Shown here one piece after another: positions 1 to 28,529 of a stretch of 64,000 nucleotides of DNA. Under the pieces are notes generated by a model, which saw only the letters and a program-made list of their open reading frames with translations, was not told the origin of the DNA and searched no databases. The DNA comes from Enterobacteria phage XTG1, in the sequence record KT184316.1; one strand, 5' to 3'. The position numbers and the translations under genes were made by a program. The first letter of the stretch is position 1; the number at the start of each line of letters is the position of its first letter.

Positions 1-22
1 CTCCAACAGAGACCAAATTAAT

Positions 23-97
23 GTTCCAGTAGACAAAACGGTAAAGTCACCACTCTTTCAAAGTGGATATTTGAGGGTTCAAATCCCTTCTGGAACG
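23..97 (+). tRNA. tRNA-Glu (anticodon TTC)
   Basis: Manual cloverleaf: acceptor gttccag/ctggaac, anticodon loop ctttcaa, T-loop ttcaaat, CCA follows. Confidence 0.7.
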
Positions 98-192
98 CCA
101 GTTTTGACAGAAGACCAATTACAGCAAACTTAATCTTATTCATCTGAAGGTAAATCGGACAAAGAAGAGATTTGGTCTGGTCATTAAGAATT

Positions 193-264
193 GCGGGTAT
201 AGAGAAAGGGCGTCTCACATGTCTCATTAGCATGGTATCGGCAGGTTCGACTCCTGCACCCGCC
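193..264 (+). tRNA. tRNA with CAT anticodon (Met or Ile2), slightly atypical
   Basis: Acceptor gcgggt/acccgc, D-stem gaga/tctc, anticodon loop ctcatta, T-arm gcagg-ttcgact-cctgc; position 37 is T. Confidence 0.5.
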
Positions 265-347
265 TCCAATTTTGCAGAAGACCGTTTACAGCAACAAAAT
301 ACTTTTTGCGGATAAAAGAAAAAAAACACGGTCTGGCAATGTATTAA

Positions 348-421
348 GGTTAGGAAGCACATAAGGTATGTGCGGTCGCCTGTTAAGCGAATGGCACAGG
401 GTTCGAATCCCTGACTAACCG
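348..421 (+). tRNA. tRNA-Asn (anticodon GTT)
   Basis: Acceptor ggttagg/actaacc, D-stem gcac/gtgc, anticodon loop ctgttaa, T-arm caggg-ttcgaat-ccctg, CCA encoded. Confidence 0.7.
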
Positions 422-432
422 CCAAATTAAAT

Positions 433-517
433 GTGTCGTTATCCCGTAGATGGTAGCGGTGGGGACTGTAAATCCCTTGTCATTGAGACTCGGTAGGTTC
501 GACTCCTACACGGCACA
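433..517 (+). tRNA. tRNA-Tyr (anticodon GTA), long variable arm
   Basis: 85 nt; anticodon stem-loop gggga-ctgtaaa-tccct; T-arm gtagg-ttcgact-cctac; CCA encoded. Confidence 0.65.
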
Positions 518-526
518 CCAAATAAA

Positions 527-601
527 GGTTATGTAGTTTAATCTGGTTAAAATACTCCCCTGTCACGGGAGATGATGAGGGTTCAAATCCCTTCGTAACC
601 G
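527..601 (+). tRNA. tRNA-Asp (anticodon GTC)
   Basis: Acceptor ggttatg/cgtaacc, anticodon stem-loop ctccc-ctgtcac-gggag, T-arm gaggg-ttcaaat-ccctt, CCA encoded. Confidence 0.7.
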
Positions 602-840
602 CCAAATTATAATAAGTATTTCAAAATGATGTTTGAGAGGGCTATTTTAGCCCCTCCCTTAAAGAGTTCTTACGAGTATTCTTTAAAGGAGCAGAAGACC
701 AAATTCAGCAAGTACGTATGATATTTTCAAGCCAATTTAATTTTGAAAAAATTTATAAAACTTGGTCTGGCTCAACAATTTTACAGAAGACCGTTTACAG
801 CAAAACTTAAACAATCTATTTCTCCGGTAAAGAAAAGGCG

Positions 841-884
841 AAGGTTCGATTCCTTCACTCGGCAGATGTCGAGTTGGTGTAATG
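841..884 (+). pseudogene. tRNA-like fragments in permuted order (3' half directly followed by a 5' half); possible pseudo-tRNA or split/permuted tRNA
   Basis: aaggttcgattcctt-cactcggca (T-arm plus 3' acceptor strand) lies 3 nt upstream of gtcgagt-tg-gtgtaatggtagcac (5' acceptor strand plus D-arm); the two acceptor strands are complementary; no complete cloverleaf found. Confidence 0.3.
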
Positions 885-917
885 GTAGCACTTAAGATGA
901 TAAACAACGGTCTGGTA

Positions 918-1059
918 ATTATCTTTGTAGATAAGTTATTAAGCTTACCTGTGAGTATGCGACCACAAAGGGTGAAAGGGTAAATTCTAGATTTAAACCC
1001 AAAAAGGCACATCGCTACAGACCTTAAGCAAGTCTGGGTAGCTTATCTACAAAGATAAT
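918..1059 (+). ncRNA. Long hairpin element closed by an 18-bp perfect inverted repeat; candidate small structured RNA in the tRNA cluster
   Basis: attatctttgtagataag at 918-935 is the exact reverse complement of cttatctacaaagataat at 1042-1059; 106-nt interior. Confidence 0.35.
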
Positions 1060-1065
1060 TTAATG

Positions 1066-1137
1066 GAAGTGTAGCAGAATGGTGATGCGGCAGACTTTTA
1101 ATCTGACAGGCGATGGGTTCGAATCCCTCCACTTCTA
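1066..1137 (+). tRNA. tRNA-Lys (anticodon TTT)
   Basis: Acceptor ggaagtg/cacttct, anticodon loop cttttaa, T-loop ttcgaat, CCA encoded. Confidence 0.6.
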
Positions 1138-1218
1138 CCAAATTCACCCTTAACTGAGAAACACCTGCGCGGCTGGAAACACCCACTCAACAGTTTCTCT
1201 AACTAGGGTACTTATTCT

Positions 1219-1292
1219 GGTTCAGTCGCAGATAAGGTAATGCAAGGGTCTCATAAGCCCTATGAATGTGGGTTCGATTCCCATCTGAACCT
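1219..1292 (+). tRNA. tRNA-Met (anticodon CAT)
   Basis: Acceptor ggttcag/ctgaacc perfect, anticodon stem-loop agggt-ctcataa-gccct, T-arm gtggg-ttcgatt-cccat. Confidence 0.7.
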
Positions 1293-1296
1293 CCAA

Positions 1297-1369
1297 GCTG
1301 GTATAGTTAAGAAGGTTATAACACTCCCCTGATAAGGGAACATCGGTGGTTCGATTCCACCTACCAGTA
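1297..1369 (+). tRNA. tRNA-Ile (anticodon GAT)
   Basis: Anticodon stem-loop ctccc-ctgataa-ggga, T-arm ggtgg-ttcgatt-ccacc, CCA encoded. Confidence 0.65.
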
Positions 1370-1387
1370 CCAATTTCAATAAAGTTG

Positions 1388-1416
1388 TTGACATTGAGAT
1401 GTGACTACTTTATAGT
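1388..1416 (+). promoter_or_regulatory. Sigma70-like promoter (TTGACA, 17-bp spacer, TATAGT) inside the tRNA cluster
   Basis: ttgaca at 1388-1393, 17-nt spacer, tatagt at 1411-1416. Confidence 0.5.
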
Positions 1417-1618
1417 AACCTTAGTTTTCGTTGCGTAGCGTCTATTTTGCAAATTTAAAATAAATGCAAACGACAATGTTTTTCTGGCAGTAGCTTGATA
1501 GGCTAAACACCAGTGAGGTCTTCCAATCCCTCATCAAAGAATTTGGCGTACTCGCCCACGGTATGATTAATAAGGTGGGCATCTTTAAGGGCTTTCTAAG
1601 AGAGTCTTTAAAGATAAT

Positions 1619-1692
1619 GCACCCTTAGTTCAATTGGATAGAGCAACGGTCTTCTAAATCGTTAGTTACAGGTTCGAATCCTGTAGGGTGTA
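1619..1692 (+). tRNA. tRNA-Arg (anticodon TCT)
   Basis: Acceptor gcaccct/agggtgt, anticodon stem-loop acggt-cttctaa-atcgt, T-arm acagg-ttcgaat-cctgt, CCA encoded. Confidence 0.7.
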
Positions 1693-1837
1693 CCAAATAG
1701 TTAGCAGATTACTTAGACGGCCTTAGTGGGTCTTCCTGTAGGGAGGTGGTCTGTATCTCATGTTTTCCAGAACATGTAAATAATCTGAGAAGAAGCTTGA
1801 CAGTGTTGAGATAACAGGGTAAGCTTCGAATTATAAT

Positions 1838-1917
1838 ATGGGACGATGTTAAGACTCTAAGGCATGAGCAACGGCCTCCAAAACCGTTTCAAAGGGGTTC
1901 AACTCCTCCGTCCCATG
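1838..1917 (+). tRNA. Atypical tRNA-like gene, possibly tRNA-Trp (anticodon CCA) with an extended D region
   Basis: Perfect acceptor atgggac/gtcccat, T-loop ttcaact, GCCA after; loop ctccaaa on stem acgg/ccgt; about 7 extra nt between acceptor and anticodon stem. Confidence 0.4.
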
Positions 1918-1933
1918 CCAAAGTCTTATTAGG

Positions 1934-2021
1934 GGTAGGTAGCGGCTAATGGTAGCCAAACTGTCTTGAAAACAGTTGCCACTGTAGAGATACGGTGAGG
2001 GTTCGACTCCTTTACTTACCG
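1934..2021 (+). tRNA. tRNA-Ser (anticodon TGA), type II with long variable arm
   Basis: 88 nt; acceptor ggtaggt/acttacc; anticodon stem-loop actgt-cttgaaa-acagt; T-arm gaggg-ttcgact-ccttt; flanked by inverted repeat cttattagg/cctaataag. Confidence 0.65.
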
Positions 2022-2176
2022 CCTAATAAGATTTACTCCGTCCATGCTTGTTCGCATTGTCGGTTTATCCCTCGTGTATTGTCGTACACTGTCAAAGCAC
2101 CTAGTAGGTGTCACGGAGAAGAGATAATATCAAGCTCTCCAAAGGTTCTAGTCACCGGATTAAACAAGACTATGCA

Positions 2177-2198
2177 AAGACCTAAATAGGTCTTTTTA
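2177..2198 (+). terminator. Hairpin plus T-run, terminator-like
   Basis: aagacct-aaat-aggtctt followed by ttttt. Confidence 0.35.
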
Positions 2199-2276
2199 GA
2201 GGGCTTCTAAGGTTATTACAGCTTGTTGTGGAGCCTTGTTGCTTAGGTTCTTAGAAGTTCTCTAAAAAGATTTAAT

Positions 2277-2350
2277 GCACCTATAGCCCAACTGGTAGAG
2301 GCAGCAGACTTAGAATCTGCTCAGTGTGAGTTCGAATCTCTCTAGGTGTA
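2277..2350 (+). tRNA. tRNA with TAG anticodon (Leu-type) but short variable arm
   Basis: Acceptor gcaccta/taggtgt, anticodon stem-loop gcaga-cttagaa-tctgc, T-loop ttcgaat, A73, CCA encoded; 74 nt. Confidence 0.55.
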
Positions 2351-2360
2351 CCAAATTAAT

Positions 2361-2433
2361 GCAGGTGTAGCAAAATGGTTATGCGGCTGACTCTTAATCA
2401 GTAAGACGATGGGTTCAATTCCCTCCACCTGTA
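2361..2433 (+). tRNA. tRNA-Lys (anticodon CTT)
   Basis: Acceptor gcaggtg/cacctgt, anticodon loop ctcttaa, T-loop ttcaatt, CCA encoded. Confidence 0.6.
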
Positions 2434-2442
2434 CCAAACAAT

Positions 2443-2515
2443 GGGGTCATAGTTTATATGGTTAAAATTCGAGTTTTGCAAACTTGGGAACCGAGTTCAA
2501 TTCTCGGTGACTCCA
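2443..2515 (+). tRNA. tRNA-Ala (anticodon TGC)
   Basis: Acceptor ggggtca/tgactcc with G3:U70; anticodon stem-loop cgagt-tttgcaa-acttg; T-arm ccgag-ttcaatt-ctcgg; CCA encoded. Confidence 0.65.
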
Positions 2516-2524
2516 CCAATTAGT

Positions 2525-2596
2525 GCATCCATAGTTTAAACGGGAAAATTACAGTCTTCCAAACTGAGGTTGAGGGTTCGATTCCCTCTGGATGCT
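2525..2596 (+). tRNA. tRNA-Gly (anticodon TCC)
   Basis: Acceptor gcatcca/tggatgc perfect, anticodon loop cttccaa, T-arm gaggg-ttcgatt-ccctc, CCA encoded. Confidence 0.7.
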
Positions 2597-2606
2597 CCAA
2601 ATTAAT

Positions 2607-2679
2607 GCTCCTATCGTATAATTGGTTATTACGGTTGCCTTGTAAGCAACTTATCAGGGTTCGAGTCCTTGTGGGAGCA
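2607..2679 (+). tRNA. tRNA-Thr (anticodon TGT)
   Basis: Acceptor gctccta/tgggagc, anticodon stem-loop gttgc-cttgtaa-gcaac, T-arm caggg-ttcgagt-ccttg, CCA encoded. Confidence 0.7.
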
Positions 2680-2778
2680 CCAATTCAGAGGTCAAGTGAA
2701 AGACCGCTTTGAGTCAACTGAAGACCGTAACAAATTCCACGGAGTTGAGTTAGCGGCACAACTCCAGACCTCTTTCAT

Positions 2779-2850
2779 ACTCGCTTAGTTTATATGGTAA
2801 AACATCACCCTTACAAGATGAAGAAAAAGGTTCAAGTCCTTTAGTGAGTA
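2779..2850 (+). tRNA. tRNA-Val (anticodon TAC)
   Basis: Acceptor actcgct/agtgagt, D-stem gttt/aaac, anticodon loop cttacaa (one C-A mismatch in stem), T-arm aaagg-ttcaagt-ccttt, CCA encoded. Confidence 0.6.
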
Positions 2851-2854
2851 CCAT

Positions 2855-2929
2855 GTTCCAGTATCCCAATTGGCAGAGGATGCAAGCTCAAACCTTGTAT
2901 TAGTGACGGTTCGAATCCGTCTTGGAACA
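2855..2929 (+). tRNA. tRNA with CAA anticodon (Leu-type) but short variable arm
   Basis: Acceptor gttccag/ttggaac, D-loop aattggcaga, anticodon stem-loop gcaag-ctcaaac-cttgt, T-arm gacgg-ttcgaat-ccgtc, A73, CCA encoded. Confidence 0.55.
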
Positions 2930-2937
2930 CCAATTTT

Positions 2938-3010
2938 GCAGGATTAGTTCAAATGGAAAGAGCAACAGTCTACGAAGCTGTTAATAGGGGTTCGAATCCC
3001 TTATCCTGCG
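2938..3010 (+). tRNA. tRNA-Arg (anticodon ACG)
   Basis: Acceptor gcaggat/atcctgc perfect, anticodon stem-loop acagt-ctacgaa-gctgt, T-arm agggg-ttcgaat-ccctt, CCA encoded. Confidence 0.7.
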
Positions 3011-3030
3011 CCAGATAAAAAGGTGATACT

Positions 3031-3273
3031 ATGCAAACATTAACAGTAGTTGAACATGAAAACTGTGAGAGTATTGAGTTTGTCAGGGTCATTGGTGTTG
3101 AACACCACATTTTCTTAAAAGTGGGATACTTATGTGACCCCGCTAGAGTAGAAAGATTTATACGTGATTGTTTTGGTGGTAGACATCTGAAGAGTGTTAT
3201 TTTTGAGACAGTTTTACCAGAAGGTTTAGAAACGAATAATAACATTTACCTCCTTACGAGGATTAGACAATGA
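3031..3273 (+). CDS. Hypothetical protein (80 aa) embedded in tRNA cluster
   Basis: ORF with RBS aaggtga 7 nt upstream of ATG; stop overlaps next start (ATGA). Confidence 0.5.
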   Translation: MQTLTVVEHENCESIEFVRVIGVEHHIFLKVGYLCDPARVERFIRDCFGGRHLKSVIFETVLPEGLETNNNIYLLTRIRQ

Positions 3274-3827
3274 GATACTTAAAGTATGCTTCATGGATTT
3301 TCTTAGCTTTGTTAGAGCCATTTGCAGCAATCTTAGCAGTTATCTTAGCACCTTTTGTAGTTCCATTCTACAGTGAGAAGAAAGGACACTTACCTTTCGG
3401 GTTCAGATGGATGGAGACATATGACAACCCAATTGATGGTGATGAAGGTCACTTTAAAAGATGGGCTAATATTAGATGGATTGGTAAACTAGGCGTCTAC
3501 ATGCAAAGAGTCGGATGGCTCTGGAGAAACAAAGCTTATAACTTCTCTTACCATGTATTAGGAAGAGATGTAAAAGATGTTACTAAGTGGAAAGGTAATA
3601 TCAACGTAAGTTCTGACCCTGAAGATAATCAGACTGGTTATCTCCTAATGTGGAACAGTAATGCTTGGGGATTATTCGCCTTTATCCCATCAATTAAAGT
3701 CTTTGGTAAACAGTTTTACTGGAGAATTTATATTGGATGGAAACTAAAAAGTGTTGTCCCAGAAGAAAGAGCATTCTCAAGGGAAAGAGTTATGTTGGCA
3801 TTCTTTATTCATCCACTGAGAAAGTAA
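3270..3827 (+). CDS. Hypothetical membrane protein (185 aa)
   Basis: RBS gagga upstream; N-terminal hydrophobic stretch WIFLALLEPFAAILAVILAPFVVPF; translationally coupled to upstream ORF. Confidence 0.55.
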   Translation: MRYLKYASWIFLALLEPFAAILAVILAPFVVPFYSEKKGHLPFGFRWMETYDNPIDGDEGHFKRWANIRWIGKLGVYMQRVGWLWRNKAYNFSYHVLGRDVKDVTKWKGNINVSSDPEDNQTGYLLMWNSNAWGLFAFIPSIKVFGKQFYWRIYIGWKLKSVVPEERAFSRERVMLAFFIHPLRK

Positions 3828-3835
3828 AGATTTAA

Positions 3836-3908
3836 AGGGGATTAGTTTACAAGGTTAAAACCTCGGTCTTTGAAATCGAAGAAGTTGGTTCAATTCCAAC
3901 ATCCCCCG
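3836..3908 (+). tRNA. tRNA-Gln (anticodon TTG)
   Basis: Anticodon stem-loop tcggt-ctttgaa-atcga, T-arm gttgg-ttcaatt-ccaac, CCA encoded. Confidence 0.65.
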
Positions 3909-3913
3909 CCAAT

Positions 3914-3989
3914 GCTCCATTACTCCAATTGGCAGAGAGGCCAGACTTAAAATCTGTGTTATGTATCGGTTCGAATCCGATATGGAGTA
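3914..3989 (+). tRNA. tRNA with TAA anticodon (Leu-type) but short variable arm
   Basis: Acceptor gctccat/atggagt, D-loop aattggcaga (paralog of 2855-2929), anticodon loop cttaaaa, T-arm atcgg-ttcgaat-ccgat, A73, CCA encoded. Confidence 0.55.
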
Positions 3990-3997
3990 CCAAATTT

Positions 3998-4070
3998 AGC
4001 GGTATAGCATAACTGGCAATGCAACAGTCTCTGAAGCTGTCCTATTAAGGTTCAAATCCTTATGCCGCTG
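3998..4070 (+). tRNA. tRNA-Gln (anticodon CTG)
   Basis: Acceptor agcggta/tgccgct, anticodon stem-loop acagt-ctctgaa-gctgt, T-arm taagg-ttcaaat-cctta, CCA encoded. Confidence 0.6.
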
Positions 4071-4104
4071 CCACTTCTAAGGATTCTTACGAGAGTCCTT
4101 AAAT

Positions 4105-4177
4105 GTGGCCTTATCATAAATGGTAATGACCCATGCTGTGAACATGGTCTATACGGGTTCAAATCCCGTAGGTCACC
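4105..4177 (+). tRNA. tRNA-His (anticodon GTG)
   Basis: Acceptor gtggcct/aggtcac, anticodon stem-loop ccatg-ctgtgaa-catgg, T-arm acggg-ttcaaat-cccgt, CCA encoded. Confidence 0.7.
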
Positions 4178-4185
4178 CCAATTTA

Positions 4186-4260
4186 TAGTCCAAGTAGCTT
4201 ATATGGTTAAAGCGCGTGTCTGAAAAACATGAGAAGAGGGTTCAAATCCCACTGGACTAC
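4186..4260 (+). tRNA. tRNA-Phe (anticodon GAA)
   Basis: Acceptor tagtcca/tggacta perfect, anticodon stem-loop cgtgt-ctgaaaa-acatg, T-loop ttcaaat. Confidence 0.65.
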
Positions 4261-4278
4261 CAATTTCAAAGGTGCTTA

Positions 4279-5013
4279 ATGAAAGAGATGACAGAACAAG
4301 GTAAGGAGATTTTTAATCTCTTAAAAACCGGTAGAGGGTTTTCTAATCCCCTTATTACTGGTGCAGCAGTTCTCGGTGGAACCGTAGCTGCCTCTACATC
4401 ACTTGTAAGTTCTATTAGCTCTGTAACAGACCCTACAATGAAGGAGAAACTTGTTGCTGCTGGACTTACAACAGTCCTTCTAAACAGCTTTACAACAAGC
4501 CTTACAAGCACTACAGCGACTACTAAGACCTTAACAGACTATGGTCAAAAGTCTATTGATGAGTTTTCATCACGTATGCAGGTAGCAAAGGGGTATTCCA
4601 ATGTTATGGGTGCAGCAGGGGAACAAGTTGGCTGTACACCGTTTAGTGGTATTATGGGCGTTGCTACAGAATATGGTCAAAAAGCTATTGACACAATTAA
4701 CAGTGCACTAGATGTCGTTAATGATGTATTAAGTGACTTACAAGATGCTATTGACAAAGGTCTTGATACTATTTCTGATTTAGCTAACCAAGCTGTTAGT
4801 AAGATTAATGAAGGTATTTCGAAGATTACAGCTTATGCAGATGAAGTTGTGCAGATGATTGAAGAAGAAGCTGCTCTTATTGCAGAGTACCTTAAAACGA
4901 ATATCAATGGGTTCTTAGCAGGTATCTTACCAGACTGGTTTGATGATGCTTGTAAAACTGGTGTGATTGACACTATTGCAACACCAGAAATGAAGAACGC
5001 ATTACAGAAATAA
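4279..5013 (+). CDS. Hypothetical protein (244 aa, Ser/Thr/Ala-rich); start refined to ATG 4279
   Basis: Track ORF 4216-5013 begins inside tRNA-Phe; in-frame ATG at 4279 has RBS aaagg upstream (MKEMTEQ...). Confidence 0.55.
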   Translation: MKEMTEQGKEIFNLLKTGRGFSNPLITGAAVLGGTVAASTSLVSSISSVTDPTMKEKLVAAGLTTVLLNSFTTSLTSTTATTKTLTDYGQKSIDEFSSRMQVAKGYSNVMGAAGEQVGCTPFSGIMGVATEYGQKAIDTINSALDVVNDVLSDLQDAIDKGLDTISDLANQAVSKINEGISKITAYADEVVQMIEEEAALIAEYLKTNINGFLAGILPDWFDDACKTGVIDTIATPEMKNALQK

Positions 5014-5014
5014 T

Positions 5015-5104
5015 GGAAGATTAACCCTAAAAGGTAAGGGAGCAGTTTGCTAAACTGCCAGTAGCTGAGAAATCGGTGTACCAGTTCAAGTCTGGTATCT
5101 TCCT
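5015..5104 (+). tRNA. tRNA-Ser (anticodon GCT), type II with long variable arm
   Basis: 90 nt; acceptor ggaagat/atcttcc perfect; anticodon stem-loop gcagt-ttgctaa-actgc; T-arm accag-ttcaagt-ctggt; CCA encoded. Confidence 0.7.
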
Positions 5105-5111
5105 CCAATTT

Positions 5112-5184
5112 GAATCCGTGACAGAAATGGCTATGTGCCTGTCTGCAAAACAGGTTTATAAGGGTTCGAGTCCCTTCGGATTCT
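5112..5184 (+). tRNA. tRNA-Cys (anticodon GCA)
   Basis: Acceptor gaatccg/cggattc perfect, anticodon stem-loop cctgt-ctgcaaa-acagg, T-arm aaggg-ttcgagt-ccctt, CCA encoded. Confidence 0.7.
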
Positions 5185-5349
5185 CCAAGTTATTTTACTC
5201 TCTCTCAATTAAAATAATAATAATGCCCTGCTATAAGTATTCTTCCTTTCGCTACCGAAGAGTATTTTTAGACAGGGCTTTTTTACAGAGCTATACTTTA
5301 TAAGAAGACTTATACAGTATGTCTCTGACGTACATTGTGGTTTCTCCTT

Positions 5350-26144: not shown

Positions 26145-28529
26145 ATGGCAGATTACAAGTTGAGTGAATTAAACTCAATCGATACAATCCGTTCAGATGA
26201 CCTTCTTCATGTCAGAGTTAAAAAGAGACCTGAAATGCTTGGCGATGAAGACCGTCGAATGACCTATCAAGATTTCTTAGCATCTTTTAAACTTGAGAGA
26301 TTTGTTCAGATTGCTGGTAGCACTATGACAGGTGACTTAGGGATTGTTAAGTTACTTTATGGTGGTAAGGTAGTATTTAACCCAACAGGCTCTTCTGAGA
26401 TTAATATTGGGGATGTTTTAAAGACTTTTAAAATCAACGCAAATGGCCTTAAACTGACTATTGCAGACACTTCAAGGTCGGCAACTGTTTATCATACTCT
26501 GAATAAGCCAAGCCCTAATGAACTTGGGATGAGAACTAATGAAGAGAATGATGCAAGGTATGCAAGACTAGCTATCACAAACACATTCTCTGGAACTCAA
26601 AATATTCAAGGTGATGCTAACTTACTTCGCCTTAGAAACCAAAATGCAAATAATGCACAATATATCGAAGGTGTAAACCTAGATGGCTCGGCTAGATGGT
26701 GGGTTGGTATTGGTAGTAATGGCTCTGACGAAGTAAAGCTGTACAATAACAAATACAACTCAGCCTTGACTGTTGCAAGTAATGTCTCTGTTAATAAGTC
26801 TTTAGCAATCACTGGTCAAGTTCAACCTTCTGACTTCTCTAACTTAGATGCTAGATACTTTACTCAGACAGTAGCTAATCAGAGATTTGCACAGTTAGCT
26901 GCGAATAACAATTTCACTGGCACTAACACGTTTAGCAGAAACCTACTTATTATCAGTGACAGTGCTGCTTTAAGGTTGAAAAATGCAACAACTAGCTCAC
27001 TATTCATTCAGGGTGTTGACTCTCAGAACACTAACAGGTGGTATGTAGGGAACGGGGATAACACAGCCTCTGTGCTGCTACACAACTATGTACACGGTTC
27101 AAATATCAGACTTGATGATGGCTATATCTCAGTCAACCAGAACTTCAGAATCACTGGTCAAGTTCAACCTTCGGATTGGATTAATATTGACTCTAGATAT
27201 ATTCCGGCAGCAACTTTGAGTAACCTACCTAAGCTTAATGTTGCTAACACATTTGTGAATGTGCAAACTATTGTATCAAATAATGAAGGCGTAGTATTAA
27301 GAAACTTAACACAGGGGCAGCCACAATATATCCGTGGTGTTGATACCCAGAATGTATCTAGGTGGTGGGTAGGTGTGGGTGGCACAAATTCTACTGATGT
27401 GGCATTAAACAACAGCTACTCTGGGACTCAAATTACTCTTATGCCTTCAGCGATTAAGGCTAATAAGAACCTAACCATTACTGGTCAAGTTCAACCTTCT
27501 GATTGGTCTAACTTAGATGCTAGATATTTTGTTAAAACTCAGTTATTAAACCAATCCTTAATGACTGTTTCTGTAGATAACCTTGAAAACCCTTCAGGTT
27601 TTAATCTTGGATATTCAGGTTTTGTCAGAAACAATCAGGTTGCTAGTGGACTGAGAGAATTGGCAATTCATGTTGCTCACTCTAATAAGACTGCTGCACA
27701 TGCAAGAGGAATCTCTTTTGTGTATGGCTCAAATGGACTGGCAACATTTACCTATGCCTATGACAAAAATGGTGACTATGCCGGAGAGGCACAGCTTTAC
27801 ACAACTGATTTTAAACCAACCCCTTCAGATATCGGTGCATACACTAAAGCTGAAACTGACCAGAAGATTGCACAGGCAGTAAGTGACTCTACAGACCTTA
27901 ATAAAATCTACCCAGTTGGTATTGTAACGTGGTTTAACAGTAATGTTGACCCTAACACAGCGTTGCCTGGGTTAACTTGGACGTACCTGAATAATGGTGT
28001 TGGTAGAACTATCAGGATTGCAGCAGCAAACGGTTCAGATGTTGCTACAACAGGTGGTTCAGATTCTGTGACGTTAGCTGTTGGTAACTTGCCATCACAC
28101 ACTCATAGTTTCTCTGCTACCACTTCATCTTTTGATTATGGTACGAAGAACACTAATAGTACTGGTGGTCATACTCACTCTGTAAGTGGTACAACAAGTG
28201 CTGCTGGTAACCACGCCCACCACTTAGGTCTGCTATTGGTTAATGGTGGTGATGCTCAGTATGGTTACACAACTGTTAGCAACAGCAAGACAAGAACTCT
28301 TGACTGGCTTGATAGAAAAGATAACAAATTCCCTAACACTAACACAACTGGTAACCATACACACACATGGTCTGGTACTACAAGTAACACTGGTGCTCAC
28401 ACCCACTCTGTAGGTATCGGTGCTCACACTCATACAGTTAGTGGTAACACTGGTGGTACAGGTTCTGGTTCAGCATTCAGTGTTACTAACCAGTTCTACA
28501 AGTTAATGGCTTGGGTAAGAACTGCTTAA
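26145..28529 (+). CDS. Tail fibre protein 2 (794 aa) with three about 90-aa repeats and HxH-rich C-terminal domain
   Basis: Repeats ending ITGQVQPSD(F/W)SNLDARYF; C-terminal HTHSFS, GHTHSVS, NHAHH, NHTHTW, AHTHSV, AHTHTV; shares FDYGTK and terminal W-x-RTA with fibre 1. Confidence 0.65.
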   Translation: MADYKLSELNSIDTIRSDDLLHVRVKKRPEMLGDEDRRMTYQDFLASFKLERFVQIAGSTMTGDLGIVKLLYGGKVVFNPTGSSEINIGDVLKTFKINANGLKLTIADTSRSATVYHTLNKPSPNELGMRTNEENDARYARLAITNTFSGTQNIQGDANLLRLRNQNANNAQYIEGVNLDGSARWWVGIGSNGSDEVKLYNNKYNSALTVASNVSVNKSLAITGQVQPSDFSNLDARYFTQTVANQRFAQLAANNNFTGTNTFSRNLLIISDSAALRLKNATTSSLFIQGVDSQNTNRWYVGNGDNTASVLLHNYVHGSNIRLDDGYISVNQNFRITGQVQPSDWINIDSRYIPAATLSNLPKLNVANTFVNVQTIVSNNEGVVLRNLTQGQPQYIRGVDTQNVSRWWVGVGGTNSTDVALNNSYSGTQITLMPSAIKANKNLTITGQVQPSDWSNLDARYFVKTQLLNQSLMTVSVDNLENPSGFNLGYSGFVRNNQVASGLRELAIHVAHSNKTAAHARGISFVYGSNGLATFTYAYDKNGDYAGEAQLYTTDFKPTPSDIGAYTKAETDQKIAQAVSDSTDLNKIYPVGIVTWFNSNVDPNTALPGLTWTYLNNGVGRTIRIAAANGSDVATTGGSDSVTLAVGNLPSHTHSFSATTSSFDYGTKNTNSTGGHTHSVSGTTSAAGNHAHHLGLLLVNGGDAQYGYTTVSNSKTRTLDWLDRKDNKFPNTNTTGNHTHTWSGTTSNTGAHTHSVGIGAHTHTVSGNTGGTGSGSAFSVTNQFYKLMAWVRTA

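Follow-up and report, generated by a model that had tools for sequence, protein, structure and literature searches.

We found that a 64,000-nucleotide stretch of Felixounavirus DNA (the window; a 99.6% match to phage KhF3) carries, at 1838–1920, a genuine conserved tRNA-like gene of Felix O1-type phages. Judged from its sequence, the gene is best read as a functional tRNA-Trp of the phage whose hinge is remodelled, a reading that we consider probable. For Salmonella and E. coli, phages of the Felix O1 type are classical tools of typing, biocontrol and therapy. The first-pass annotation had proposed an unusual tRNA-Trp(CCA) or tRNA-like gene here, and this was borne out by covariation in four helices, by the invariance of the CCA anticodon, G73 and the elbow, by the absence of tryptophan from the rest of the phage tRNA set and by replacement with another tRNA-Trp allele in wV8-type phages.

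The gene belongs to a tRNA cluster in which ARAGORN called 25 tRNAs in the window. A tRNA-Pro, whose 3′ end is at window base 15, lies directly upstream of the ARAGORN-called cluster, and together these tRNAs serve all amino acids except tryptophan. We also observed a tRNA fragment near the gene, at 807–857, and HNH endonuclease genes that adjoin variant tRNA alleles within the phage tRNA cluster.

Conservation of a four-helix cloverleaf

We compared 20 distinct variants of the gene from Felixounavirus, Mooglevirus and Suspvirus and from Pectobacterium and Yersinia phage relatives. Covariation was counted over 15 aligned variants, which covered the three genera and the Pectobacterium and Yersinia phages. 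The four-helix cloverleaf (Table 1) was paired in 99.6% of alignment cells, and compensatory double changes were found in 8 of 19 pairs, distributed over all four helices. All six slid controls gave zero compensatory pairs, and RNAalifold independently returned the same cloverleaf from the alignment. The folding energy of the single sequence was unremarkable (z = −1.39). The invariant elements comprised anticodon CCA, U33, G73, G5-C68, the D-loop G18 G19, the T-loop equivalents of U54, U55, C56 and A58, and the encoded CCA end.

Table 1. Parts of the tRNA-like gene and its candidate promoter, in window coordinates.
Feature	Position	Strand	Description
Probable tRNA-Trp(CCA) gene	1838–1920	+	83 nt
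Acceptor stem, 5′ strand	1838–1844	+	AUGGGAC; perfect complement of 1910–1916; A1838-U1916 is A1-U72
Acceptor–D connector	1845–1854	+	GAUGUUAAGA, 10 nt; 2 nt (U8, N9) in standard tRNAs
D stem, 5′ strand	1855–1857	+	CUC; paired with 1866–1868 in 100% of alignment cells
D loop	1858–1865	+	UAAGGCAU, 8 nt (normal size); G1861 G1862 are the G18 G19 equivalents
D stem, 3′ strand	1866–1868	+	GAG; covaries with 1855–1857
Lone unpaired C	1869	+	Between D and anticodon helices, position-26-like; invariant; unpaired in RNAalifold
Anticodon helix, 5′ strand	1870–1874	+	AACGG; pairs with 1884–1888
Nine unpaired nucleotides	1875–1883	+	C-CUCCAAA-A; anticodon CCA 1878–1880; U33 is 1877
Anticodon helix, 3′ strand	1884–1888	+	CCGUU; covaries with 1870–1874
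Variable region	1889–1893	+	UCAAA, 5 nt, class I tRNA; 0 of 5 positions vary among 83-nt variants
T arm	1894–1908	+	Stem GGGG/CCUC (1894–1897/1905–1908); T-loop UUCAACU 1898–1904
C1909	1909	+	Faces A1893 (A·C at 49-65, 7/5 fold) or pairs with G1845 (8/4 fold)
Acceptor stem, 3′ strand	1910–1916	+	GUCCCAU; complement of 1838–1844; covaries
Discriminator G73 and encoded CCA end	1917–1920	+	Invariant in all variants
Candidate promoter	1797–1825	+	TTGACA (1797–1802), 17 nt, TAAGCT (1820–1825)

The perfect 7-bp acceptor stem described in the first-pass annotation was confirmed at the positions in Table 1, and the T-loop with its GGGG and CCTC flanks, G1917 and the CCA end were likewise present. Acceptor pairs 1-72 (A-U, G-U or G-C) and 2-71 (U-A or C-G) covary. 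Position 1-72 is G1·U72 in 4 of the 15 aligned variants and G1-C72 in 2 of them; the Pectobacterium and Yersinia versions have G1-C72 together with a bulged base in the 3′ acceptor strand. In the D stem, which has three pairs (four in phages Wc4 and P778), U1856-A1867 is replaced by A-U in 7 of 15 variants. The T-stem pair G1894-C1908 becomes U-A in two variants.

The anticodon helix showed double changes in four of its five pairs, for example from AACGG/CCGUU to GUAAG/CUUAC. C1875 and A1883, which follow these five Watson-Crick pairs, form a standard pair in none of the 15 variants (C·A in 13, C·C in 2), and the nine loop nucleotides are therefore unpaired. On the same count we rejected a standard 31-39 closing pair. 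The first-pass annotation had correctly placed the loop CTCCAAA (1876–1882), with CCA inside it and C1875 opposite A1883, and had offered two forms of the arm; the 5-bp stem with a 9-nt loop was favoured over the 7-nt loop closed by a C-A mismatch, with 1870 and 1888 covarying as Watson-Crick partners and 1875 and 1883 lacking a standard pair in all 15 variants. In standard numbering, the arm thus consists of a paired 26-44, four further base pairs and an unpaired C31·A39, with U33 present. Loop positions 32 and 38 vary (CUCCAAA versus UUCCAAC).

An insertion between the acceptor and D stems

Ahead of the anticodon helix the gene has 33 nt (1838–1870) in place of the standard 26, as had been noted. 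The extra nucleotides had been attributed to an extended D region; they are real, but they lie in the acceptor–D connector, and the D loop itself is of normal size. A stem with a long D loop (1848–1851/1866–1869) was rejected, as it was paired in 63% of cells and had zero covariation. The 10-nt connector abolishes the standard core contacts U8-A14 and 9-(12-23). G1845-C1909 may form an eighth acceptor pair, as predicted by RNAalifold, in which case the connector would be 9 nt instead of 10. Because G1845, A1893 and C1909 are all invariant, covariation does not choose between the 7/5 and 8/4 folds.

Across the 20 distinct variants, the connector carries a single substitution, a U to C in phage PC79-13. 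With 1 of 10 positions variable, compared with 21 of 83 overall, it is the most sequence-constrained unpaired element, although part of this conservation stems from the use of a connector pattern to retrieve some of the loci.

Tryptophan identity

The bacterial tryptophan identity set is summarized in PMC9976931. Its anticodon C34 C35 A36 is present as CCA at 1878–1880, invariant in the 20 distinct variants, and its discriminator G73 as the invariant G1917. Among minor elements, the window has A1-U72 (A1838-U1916) and G5-C68 (G1842-C1912). U31-A39, which has been predicted to be a determinant of E. coli tRNA-Trp (PMC9976931), is absent. E. coli trpT can be aligned with the segment GAGCAxCGGyCUCCAAAACCG, which runs from the 3′ strand of the D stem through the anticodon loop.

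In wV8-type phages we found, at the identical site and behind the same upstream spacer, a gene of 71 nt that ARAGORN calls as tRNA-Trp(cca); it is annotated as tRNA-OTHER, pseudo, in NC_012749. The extended and wV8-type alleles are mutually exclusive, with one per genome. They have in common the anticodon loop, A1-U72, G73 and CCA. Outside the anticodon loop the wV8-type sequence is unrelated, its U31-A39 is paired, and its D region is 4 nt below standard, whereas that of the extended allele is 7 nt above. Unlike the extended allele, it is followed by an HNH endonuclease gene.

Standard finders overlook the gene

ARAGORN made no call on the native sequence, including at lowered thresholds (-ps), and the Rfam tRNA model RF00005 gave no match, either at the gathering cut-off or at E values up to 10. 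The sole Rfam match was tRNA-Sec (RF01852), at 23 bits against a threshold of 47 (E = 0.011 for a 161-nt stretch). We rejected a tRNA-Sec identity given the anticodon CCA rather than UCA, the 5-nt variable region and the 3-bp D stem. The first-pass annotation had named the lack of any tRNA model scoring above threshold as grounds for refutation, and formally this is what the ARAGORN and Rfam searches returned. However, removing any six connector bases in silico led ARAGORN to call tRNA-Trp(cca), indicating that the detectors fail because of the insertion and not because of weak tRNA character. The gene is thus overlooked by standard finders owing to about seven extra bases between the first two stems.

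A covariance model of the family matched ordinary tRNAs end to end; its best matches outside the family were a tRNA-Arg(ACG), at 39 bits, and then the canonical tRNA-Trp of Erwinia phage Roscha1, at 35 bits. A protein-coding reading was also rejected, as the overlapping open reading frames span just 22–36 amino acids.

Distribution and annotation

The gene is carried by about 235 GenBank phage records and is also found in IMG/VR contigs and metagenomes. In Pectobacterium phage Wc4, alignment to the window is confined to the gene body, and the flanks diverge. No tRNA is annotated for the gene in any of the 60 GenBank matches listed, of 311 matching records, the Felix O1 RefSeq entry included. 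A 2025 study of the tRNAs of phage Sf14 counted 19 amino acids, with tryptophan absent. Our literature search returned nothing relevant on an earlier description of the gene or on Felixounavirus small-RNA data, and it found no transcriptome study and no published charging or UGG-decoding data.

A scan of IMG/VR with GATGTTAAGA..YTCCAA gave mostly chance matches among those listed. A three-block pattern run on metagenome and genome collections also gave mostly chance matches, with at least about 10 real metagenome copies and, among the 120 matches listed, no real copy in a bacterial genome. A blastn search of 5,426 complete E. coli genomes gave zero matches, indicating that at this sensitivity the gene is not a host or prophage gene.

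Upstream sequence

A TTGACA/TATAAT promoter had been suggested just upstream of the gene. Both elements are present (1797–1802 and 1832–1837), but with 29 nt between them and TATAAT lying directly against base 1 of the tRNA they do not constitute a sigma-70 pair. A promoter scan of the region performed at chance level, with one promoter-like match against 0.9 expected from shuffles; this sole match, TTGAGA-17-AATTAT, would begin transcription inside the tRNA. TTGACA-17-TAAGCT (Table 1), which the consensus scanner did not report, is a weak candidate, possibly a promoter that starts transcription a few bases 5′ of 1838. TTTACA...TAAGCT is kept upstream of both Trp alleles.

Comparison with known tRNAs

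The phage gene has in common with E. coli trpT and the Roscha1 tRNA-Trp the CUCCAAA loop, G73, A1-U72, G5-C68, the D-stem 3′ strand GAGC, G18 G19, the T-loop, a 5-nt variable region and the encoded CCA. Roscha1 belongs to Kolesnikvirus, in the same subfamily, and its tRNA-Trp also has the C31·A39 apposition but occupies a different cluster position. By contrast with a standard tRNA-Trp, the phage gene has a connector of 10 rather than 2 nt and a new CUC strand on the 5′ side of the D stem; its 26-44 is a covarying Watson-Crick pair, its 31·39 is always unpaired, and its first T-stem pair is A·C unless the fold is 8/4.

Irregular acidobacterial allo-tRNA-like sequences (Mukai et al. 2017) have an 8/4 branch and an extra acceptor–D loop, and E. 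coli enzymes could not charge them (PMC7609411). The phage gene resembles them in its extra unpaired acceptor–D nucleotides and in the possible 8/4 fold suggested by the RNAalifold G1845-C1909 pair. Those sequences come from soil bacteria and have long variable arms, Ser-type features and assorted anticodons, whereas the phage gene is of class I, with the variable region UCAAA and the Trp identity set, and comes from an enterobacterial phage. The phage gene resembles tRNA-Sec (RF01852) in that its acceptor stem may have eight pairs and its anticodon arm stacks six layers, but it lacks the long variable arm and 6-bp D stem and has anticodon CCA.

UGA-reading tRNA-Trp(CCA) (PMC13092985) is the same tRNA species altered in the same region of hinge and anticodon stem. 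Those tRNAs carry point changes or an open 27-43, whereas the phage gene has about 7 nt inserted and is open at 31·39. In the window, 27-43 (1871–1887) is a covarying A-U pair, and not the unpaired stem top of the Blastocrithidia-like class. A class of tRNA-Trp 'unpinned at the bottom' is mentioned, and left unstudied, in PMC13092985.

Discussion

In the reading that we favour, 1838–1920 would encode the phage's own tRNA-Trp(CCA) of 83 nt. Host RNase P and 3′ processing would release the RNA from the tRNA-cluster transcript, host TrpRS would charge it with tryptophan, mainly through anticodon CCA, G73 and the first acceptor pair, and EF-Tu would deliver it through the intact 12-layer acceptor/T stack to read UGG. 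With it, the 26 other tRNAs would become a set that serves all 20 amino acids and could keep late translation going when host tRNAs run short or come under attack. The gene probably arose from an ordinary tRNA-Trp whose D loop gained about 7 nt; these would have supplied the new 5′ D-stem strand CUC, with the old strand GUU absorbed into the connector.

Alternatively, the RNA could be tRNA-shaped and act outside ordinary decoding, as a decoy or sponge that draws off TrpRS or a host nuclease directed at tRNAs, or as a processing or regulatory element of the cluster transcript, with the invariant connector as a protein- or RNA-binding site. The constraint on the connector suggests recognition by something, even if retrieval with the connector pattern inflates it; in addition, the standard core contacts are missing, detectors reject the gene, and the irregular tRNAs that E. 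coli enzymes could not charge have their extra loop at the same place. Phage tRNAs are known to counter tRNA-cleaving defences (PMC10264068, PMC11464382), and retron Eco2, which cuts tRNA-Trp among others, spares most Felixounavirus phages (PMC12916289). We nevertheless consider such a role unlikely: it would not need CCA, U33, G73, the CCA end and the acceptor/T stack that binds EF-Tu to be strictly conserved all together, a near-standard tRNA-Trp allele can replace the gene at the locus, and the gene fills the sole gap in an otherwise complete decoding set. That the locus is a decaying tRNA pseudogene, a chance tRNA-like sequence or an element that acts as DNA, for example a promoter or a homing-endonuclease target, appears highly improbable. 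The failure of all tRNA detectors, the ordinary folding energy, the HNH endonuclease genes beside variant alleles of the cluster and the nearby tRNA fragment would fit such an origin, but compensatory changes across genera in four helices act at the RNA level, the gene is kept in GenBank phage records, IMG/VR contigs and metagenomes, and distant relatives retain the gene body while their flanks diverge.

The features of the hinge also raise the possibility that this tRNA-Trp, with its insertion and open 31·39, is a relaxed decoder that reads UGA as well, like the Hirsh G24A and A9C and the 4-bp-stem forms of tRNA-Trp(CCA). In E. coli among other settings, tRNA-Trp(CCA) comes to read UGA through A9C, G24A or unpinning of 27-43 (PMC13092985), and the changes in the phage gene fall in the same hinge (positions 9–12, 23–26 and 44–45): 10 nt stand in place of position 9, 11-24 and 26-44 are both Watson-Crick pairs, the former a C-G, and 31·39 is unpaired. 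Both alleles at the locus have abnormal D regions (+7 or −4 nt), and the Roscha1 tRNA-Trp, of canonical length, has both U27·C43 and C31·A39. If so, infection would bring the phage read-through of UGA at a low level, or a means of disturbing host termination. The phage's own stop codons argue against this, and we regard it as quite unlikely. Of 71 long open reading frames in the window, 46 end in TAA, 18 in TGA (the terminase gene included) and 7 in TAG, a usage that does not avoid UGA; beyond TGA the frame stays open for a median of just 3.5 codons, no longer than beyond TAA. No conserved read-through frame was found, and the lone 86-codon extension is a separate small open reading frame in the same frame. 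Moreover, the UGA-reading class that has been studied is unpinned at the top of the stem and not at the bottom (PMC13092985).

Recognizing the gene as tRNA-Trp would complete the Felix O1-type tRNA set for 20 amino acids, which bears on the idea that phage tRNA sets free translation from host tRNA pools and from tRNA-cleaving defences. It would also be a natural class I tRNA, backed by covariation, in which about 10 nt occupy the place where U8 and N9 normally build the core. The gene sits in an experimentally tractable E. coli phage and would belong to a tRNA species whose hinge changes alter decoding (the Hirsh suppressor), offering a direct test of how much remodelling of the tRNA core is tolerated by charging, EF-Tu binding and decoding. 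More broadly, tRNA finders overlook conserved non-canonical tRNAs in phage tRNA clusters; we met others of this kind in passing.

Identification of an unannotated tRNA-Trp-like gene

The phage tRNA cluster occupies window bases 1-5200. ARAGORN called 25 tRNAs in it, 23 of which were also found by Rfam, and the record of Enterobacteria phage KhF3, which is 99.6% identical to the first 6 kb of the window, places the end of a tRNA-Pro at window base 15. Among further Felix O1-like phages (Ounavirinae, Felixounavirus), hundreds match these 6 kb at 90-97%. Tryptophan is the sole amino acid without a tRNA in the combined set. The candidate tRNA-Trp(CCA) gene (83 nt, 1838-1920, plus strand; the Trp gene) occupies part of the 238 nt that separate tRNA-Arg(UCU) (1619-1695) from tRNA-Ser(UGA) (1934-2023). 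As the first-pass annotation had noticed, its end sequences ATGGGAC and GTCCCAT pair, followed by G1917 and CCA (1918-1920). We also observed the reported T-loop (T arm GGGG-TTCAACT-CCTC), the anticodon loop CTCCAAA with CCA at 1878-1880 and C1875 opposite A1883, and 33 nt instead of the standard 26 ahead of the anticodon helix.

ARAGORN made no call on the native gene, relaxed settings included, and the Rfam tRNA model gave zero matches at E up to 10; the sole Rfam match was tRNA-Sec, at 23 bits (threshold 47). Because detectors reject the gene and its folding energy is ordinary (z = -1.39), it is ambiguous on its own sequence. Overlapping open reading frames span only 22-36 amino acids. The TTGACA and TATAAT elements proposed earlier as a promoter are 29 nt apart. 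The only promoter geometry permitting a full-length tRNA, TTGACA-17-TAAGCT (1797-1825), was not among the matches of a promoter scanner and is a weak candidate.

About 235 GenBank phage records contain the Trp gene at 85-100% identity; of 311 matching records, the 60 listed all lack a tRNA annotation for it. Felix O1 carries it unannotated (about 26533-26615 of NC_005282), and Sf14 carries it at 91.6% identity. The copy in Pectobacterium phage Wc4 is 76% identical, with the alignment confined to the gene body; as in the window, it lies directly 3' of tRNA-Arg(UCU), and its cluster lacks a called tRNA-Trp. With further copies from Yersinia phage P778, Mooglevirus, Suspvirus, IMG/VR contigs and metagenomes, we collected 20 distinct variants across 44 loci. 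We found no prior description in the literature: a 2025 study of Sf14 tRNAs gives 26 tRNAs for 19 amino acids, Trp absent, and the wV8 paper reports 23 tRNAs in wV8 and quotes 22 for Felix O1.

Covariation defines a cloverleaf with a long connector

In an alignment of 15 variants, the cloverleaf forms standard pairs in 99.6% of all cells, and 8 of its 19 pairs, representing all four helices, show both-sided changes. Every slid control had 0 such pairs, with pairing of 32-52%. RNAalifold, run independently, returned the same cloverleaf plus the pair G1845-C1909. Covariation does not separate the candidate 7/5 and 8/4 folds because G1845, A1893 and C1909 are all invariant. This pattern marks the product of the Trp gene as a structured RNA under selection.

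Helices of the Trp gene in window coordinates
Feature	Positions	Basis
Acceptor helix	1838-1844/1910-1916	covariation model
D stem	1855-1857/1866-1868	covariation model
Anticodon helix	1870-1874/1884-1888	covariation model
T stem	1894-1897/1905-1908	covariation model

The surplus nucleotides are real, but their earlier placement in an enlarged D region was wrong, as covariation assigns them to the connector between the acceptor and D stems. A long-D-loop stem (1848-1851/1866-1869) was rejected, being 63% paired with no covariation. This failure, together with the replacement of U1856-A1867 by A-U in seven of the 15 variants, indicates that the D arm is normal-sized, its stem having 3 bp (4 bp in Wc4 and P778) and its 8-nt loop an invariant GG. 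The surplus is a single-stranded 10-nt connector, GAUGUUAAGA (1845-1854), where standard tRNAs carry U8 and N9. It shows one substitution among 20 variants (21 of 83 positions vary in the whole gene), a conservation partly inflated because some loci were retrieved by connector pattern, and it was equally constant in loci identified by way of the upstream spacer or with BLAST. In silico, ARAGORN called tRNA-Trp(cca) once any run of six connector bases had been removed. Alignment to E. coli trpT sets the old D-stem 5' strand and D-loop start (GUUCAA) opposite connector GUUAAG, and ACUCUAA appears to be the inserted piece. From this alignment, a plausible origin is a D-loop insertion that yielded a better 5' partner (CUC) for GAG. 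The invariant connector may rebuild the core or serve as a recognition site.

Covariation supports Watson-Crick pairing of 1870 with 1888 (AU 7, GC 6, GU 2), and C1875/A1883 forms no standard pair in any variant (C.A in 13, C.C in 2). The anticodon arm therefore consists of five Watson-Crick pairs and a loop of nine unpaired nucleotides, the alternative that the first-pass annotation had offered. In standard numbering, 26-44 is paired, four stem pairs follow and 31.39 is open; positions 32 and 38 vary (CUCCAAA or UUCCAAC), and U33 and CCA are constant. The open 31.39 is older than the insertion, because the canonical-length tRNA-Trp of Roscha1 (Erwinia phage, Kolesnikvirus) has GGCCUCCAAAACC, with C31.A39, in common with the Trp gene. 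In this Roscha1 tRNA-Trp(CCA) (L396:6350-6425), U27.C43 and C31.A39 are unpaired, leaving three Watson-Crick anticodon-stem pairs; it thus joins the 'top-unpinned' feature, linked to UGA reading, to the open 31.39, and it ends in GTCA, not GCCA.

The gene carries tRNA-Trp identity marks

The initial reading as an unusual tRNA-Trp(CCA) gained support from several sides. The only specificity absent from the phage set is the gene's own, and the gene matches the bacterial Trp identity elements anticodon CCA, G73, A1-U72 and G5-C68 (PMC9976931). At this site and after the same upstream spacer, phages of the wV8 type have a different gene, 71 nt long, which ARAGORN recognises as tRNA-Trp(cca); searched with a covariance model of the extended family, each genome showed one allele or the other, never both. 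Ordinary tRNAs also align with this model over their full length (15-39 bits), the best non-family matches being tRNA-Arg(ACG) (39 bits) and then the Roscha1 tRNA-Trp (35 bits). The gene has a conserved cloverleaf, Trp identity marks, an intact elbow and 12-layer acceptor/T stack, and an encoded CCA. It is a real, conserved, non-canonical tRNA-Trp gene, previously unannotated. It likely functions in translation: after processing out of the cluster transcript, its RNA would be charged by the host's TrpRS and read UGG, completing the phage set for 20 amino acids. The finding bears on tRNA structure, decoding and phage tRNA biology.

The gene differs from a standard tRNA in connector length and detector score. 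We rejected tRNA-Sec (anticodon UCA, here CCA) and allo-tRNA, since the gene lacks the long variable arm of both. The closest structural parallel for surplus nucleotides at this position comes from a set of irregular acidobacterial allo-tRNA-like sequences.

The covariation signature in four helices contradicts a pseudogene, a chance sequence or a purely DNA-level element, which are therefore effectively excluded. A decoy or regulatory tRNA-like RNA is favoured by the constraint on the connector and by the reported failure of E. coli enzymes to charge irregular tRNAs that have an extra loop at the same place (PMC7609411); however, all translation-relevant marks are conserved together, and the gene is exchanged as an allele with a near-normal tRNA-Trp, so such a role is unlikely. 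Somewhat less probable still is a Hirsh-like tRNA-Trp that reads UGA. Although the changes fall in the hinge where A9C, G24A and 27-43 unpinning confer UGA reading (PMC13092985), TGA is the stop of 18 of 71 long open reading frames in the window, and the extensions beyond it are ordinary.

Other atypical genes in the clusters

At L002:1751-2240 (wV8; also in L007, L013 and L016), the wV8-type 71-nt tRNA-Trp(cca) allele has a D region 4 nt below standard and is labelled tRNA-OTHER, pseudo, in RefSeq. The HNH endonuclease gene directly after it suggests homing-endonuclease-driven allele replacement within the cluster. In wV8 (L002:1519-1601) and Felix O1 (L397:1951-2033, about NC_005282 25950-26032), an 83-nt tRNA-like gene uncalled by ARAGORN replaces the ordinary tRNA-Arg(UCU) of window 1619-1695. 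It has a 7-bp acceptor stem, merely 7 nt in place of the D arm, the loop CUUCUAA (UCU), a variable region with a hairpin, a normal T arm and ACCA; an HNH endonuclease gene begins directly after the Felix O1 copy.

Unannotated long tRNA-like sequences lie just 3' of tRNA-Arg(UCU) in P778 (L151:2742-2854, 113 nt) and Roscha1 (L396:5651-5817, 167 nt, terminating in GCCA), with complementary acceptor-type ends, a GGTTCGAATCC T arm and large internal insertions. Roscha1 L396:3900-3974, between tRNA-Pro and tRNA-Ala, is an unannotated full-length tRNA (25 bits with the family model), by cluster position probably the tRNA-Glu absent from that record. Directly after the Trp-like gene of Wc4, L028:3102-3191, uncalled in the record and by ARAGORN, combines the loop CUUGAAA and a GGTTCAATTCC T arm with a long variable arm; it is a probable tRNA-Ser(UGA), and Wc4 would therefore also be complete for Ser.

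Within the window, tRNA-Met(CAU) (192-268; ARAGORN and KhF3 record) gave no Rfam tRNA match at E up to 5 and may be another atypical tRNA. An isolated T-arm-like fragment, GAAGGTTCGATTCCTTC (807-857), which scores 22 bits over positions 7-64 alone of the Rfam tRNA model and for which we saw no matching acceptor strand, looks like a tRNA remnant. The 93-nt gene at 5015-5107 (L001:5014-5106), of class II length, is 'tRNA-Cys, GCU anticodon' in the KhF3 GenBank record and tRNA-Ser(gct) by ARAGORN; the former is likely an annotation slip. Cluster spacers (108-182, 275-336, 692-772 and 784-915) repeat the motif AGAAGACC(N2-3)TT(T/C)ACAGCAA, each with GGTCTGG 40-110 nt downstream; GACC is complementary to GGTC and could pair with it. 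A related (T)TTGACAG/TTTACAG precedes the Trp gene. Such elements may act as promoters of the phage or as processing stems.
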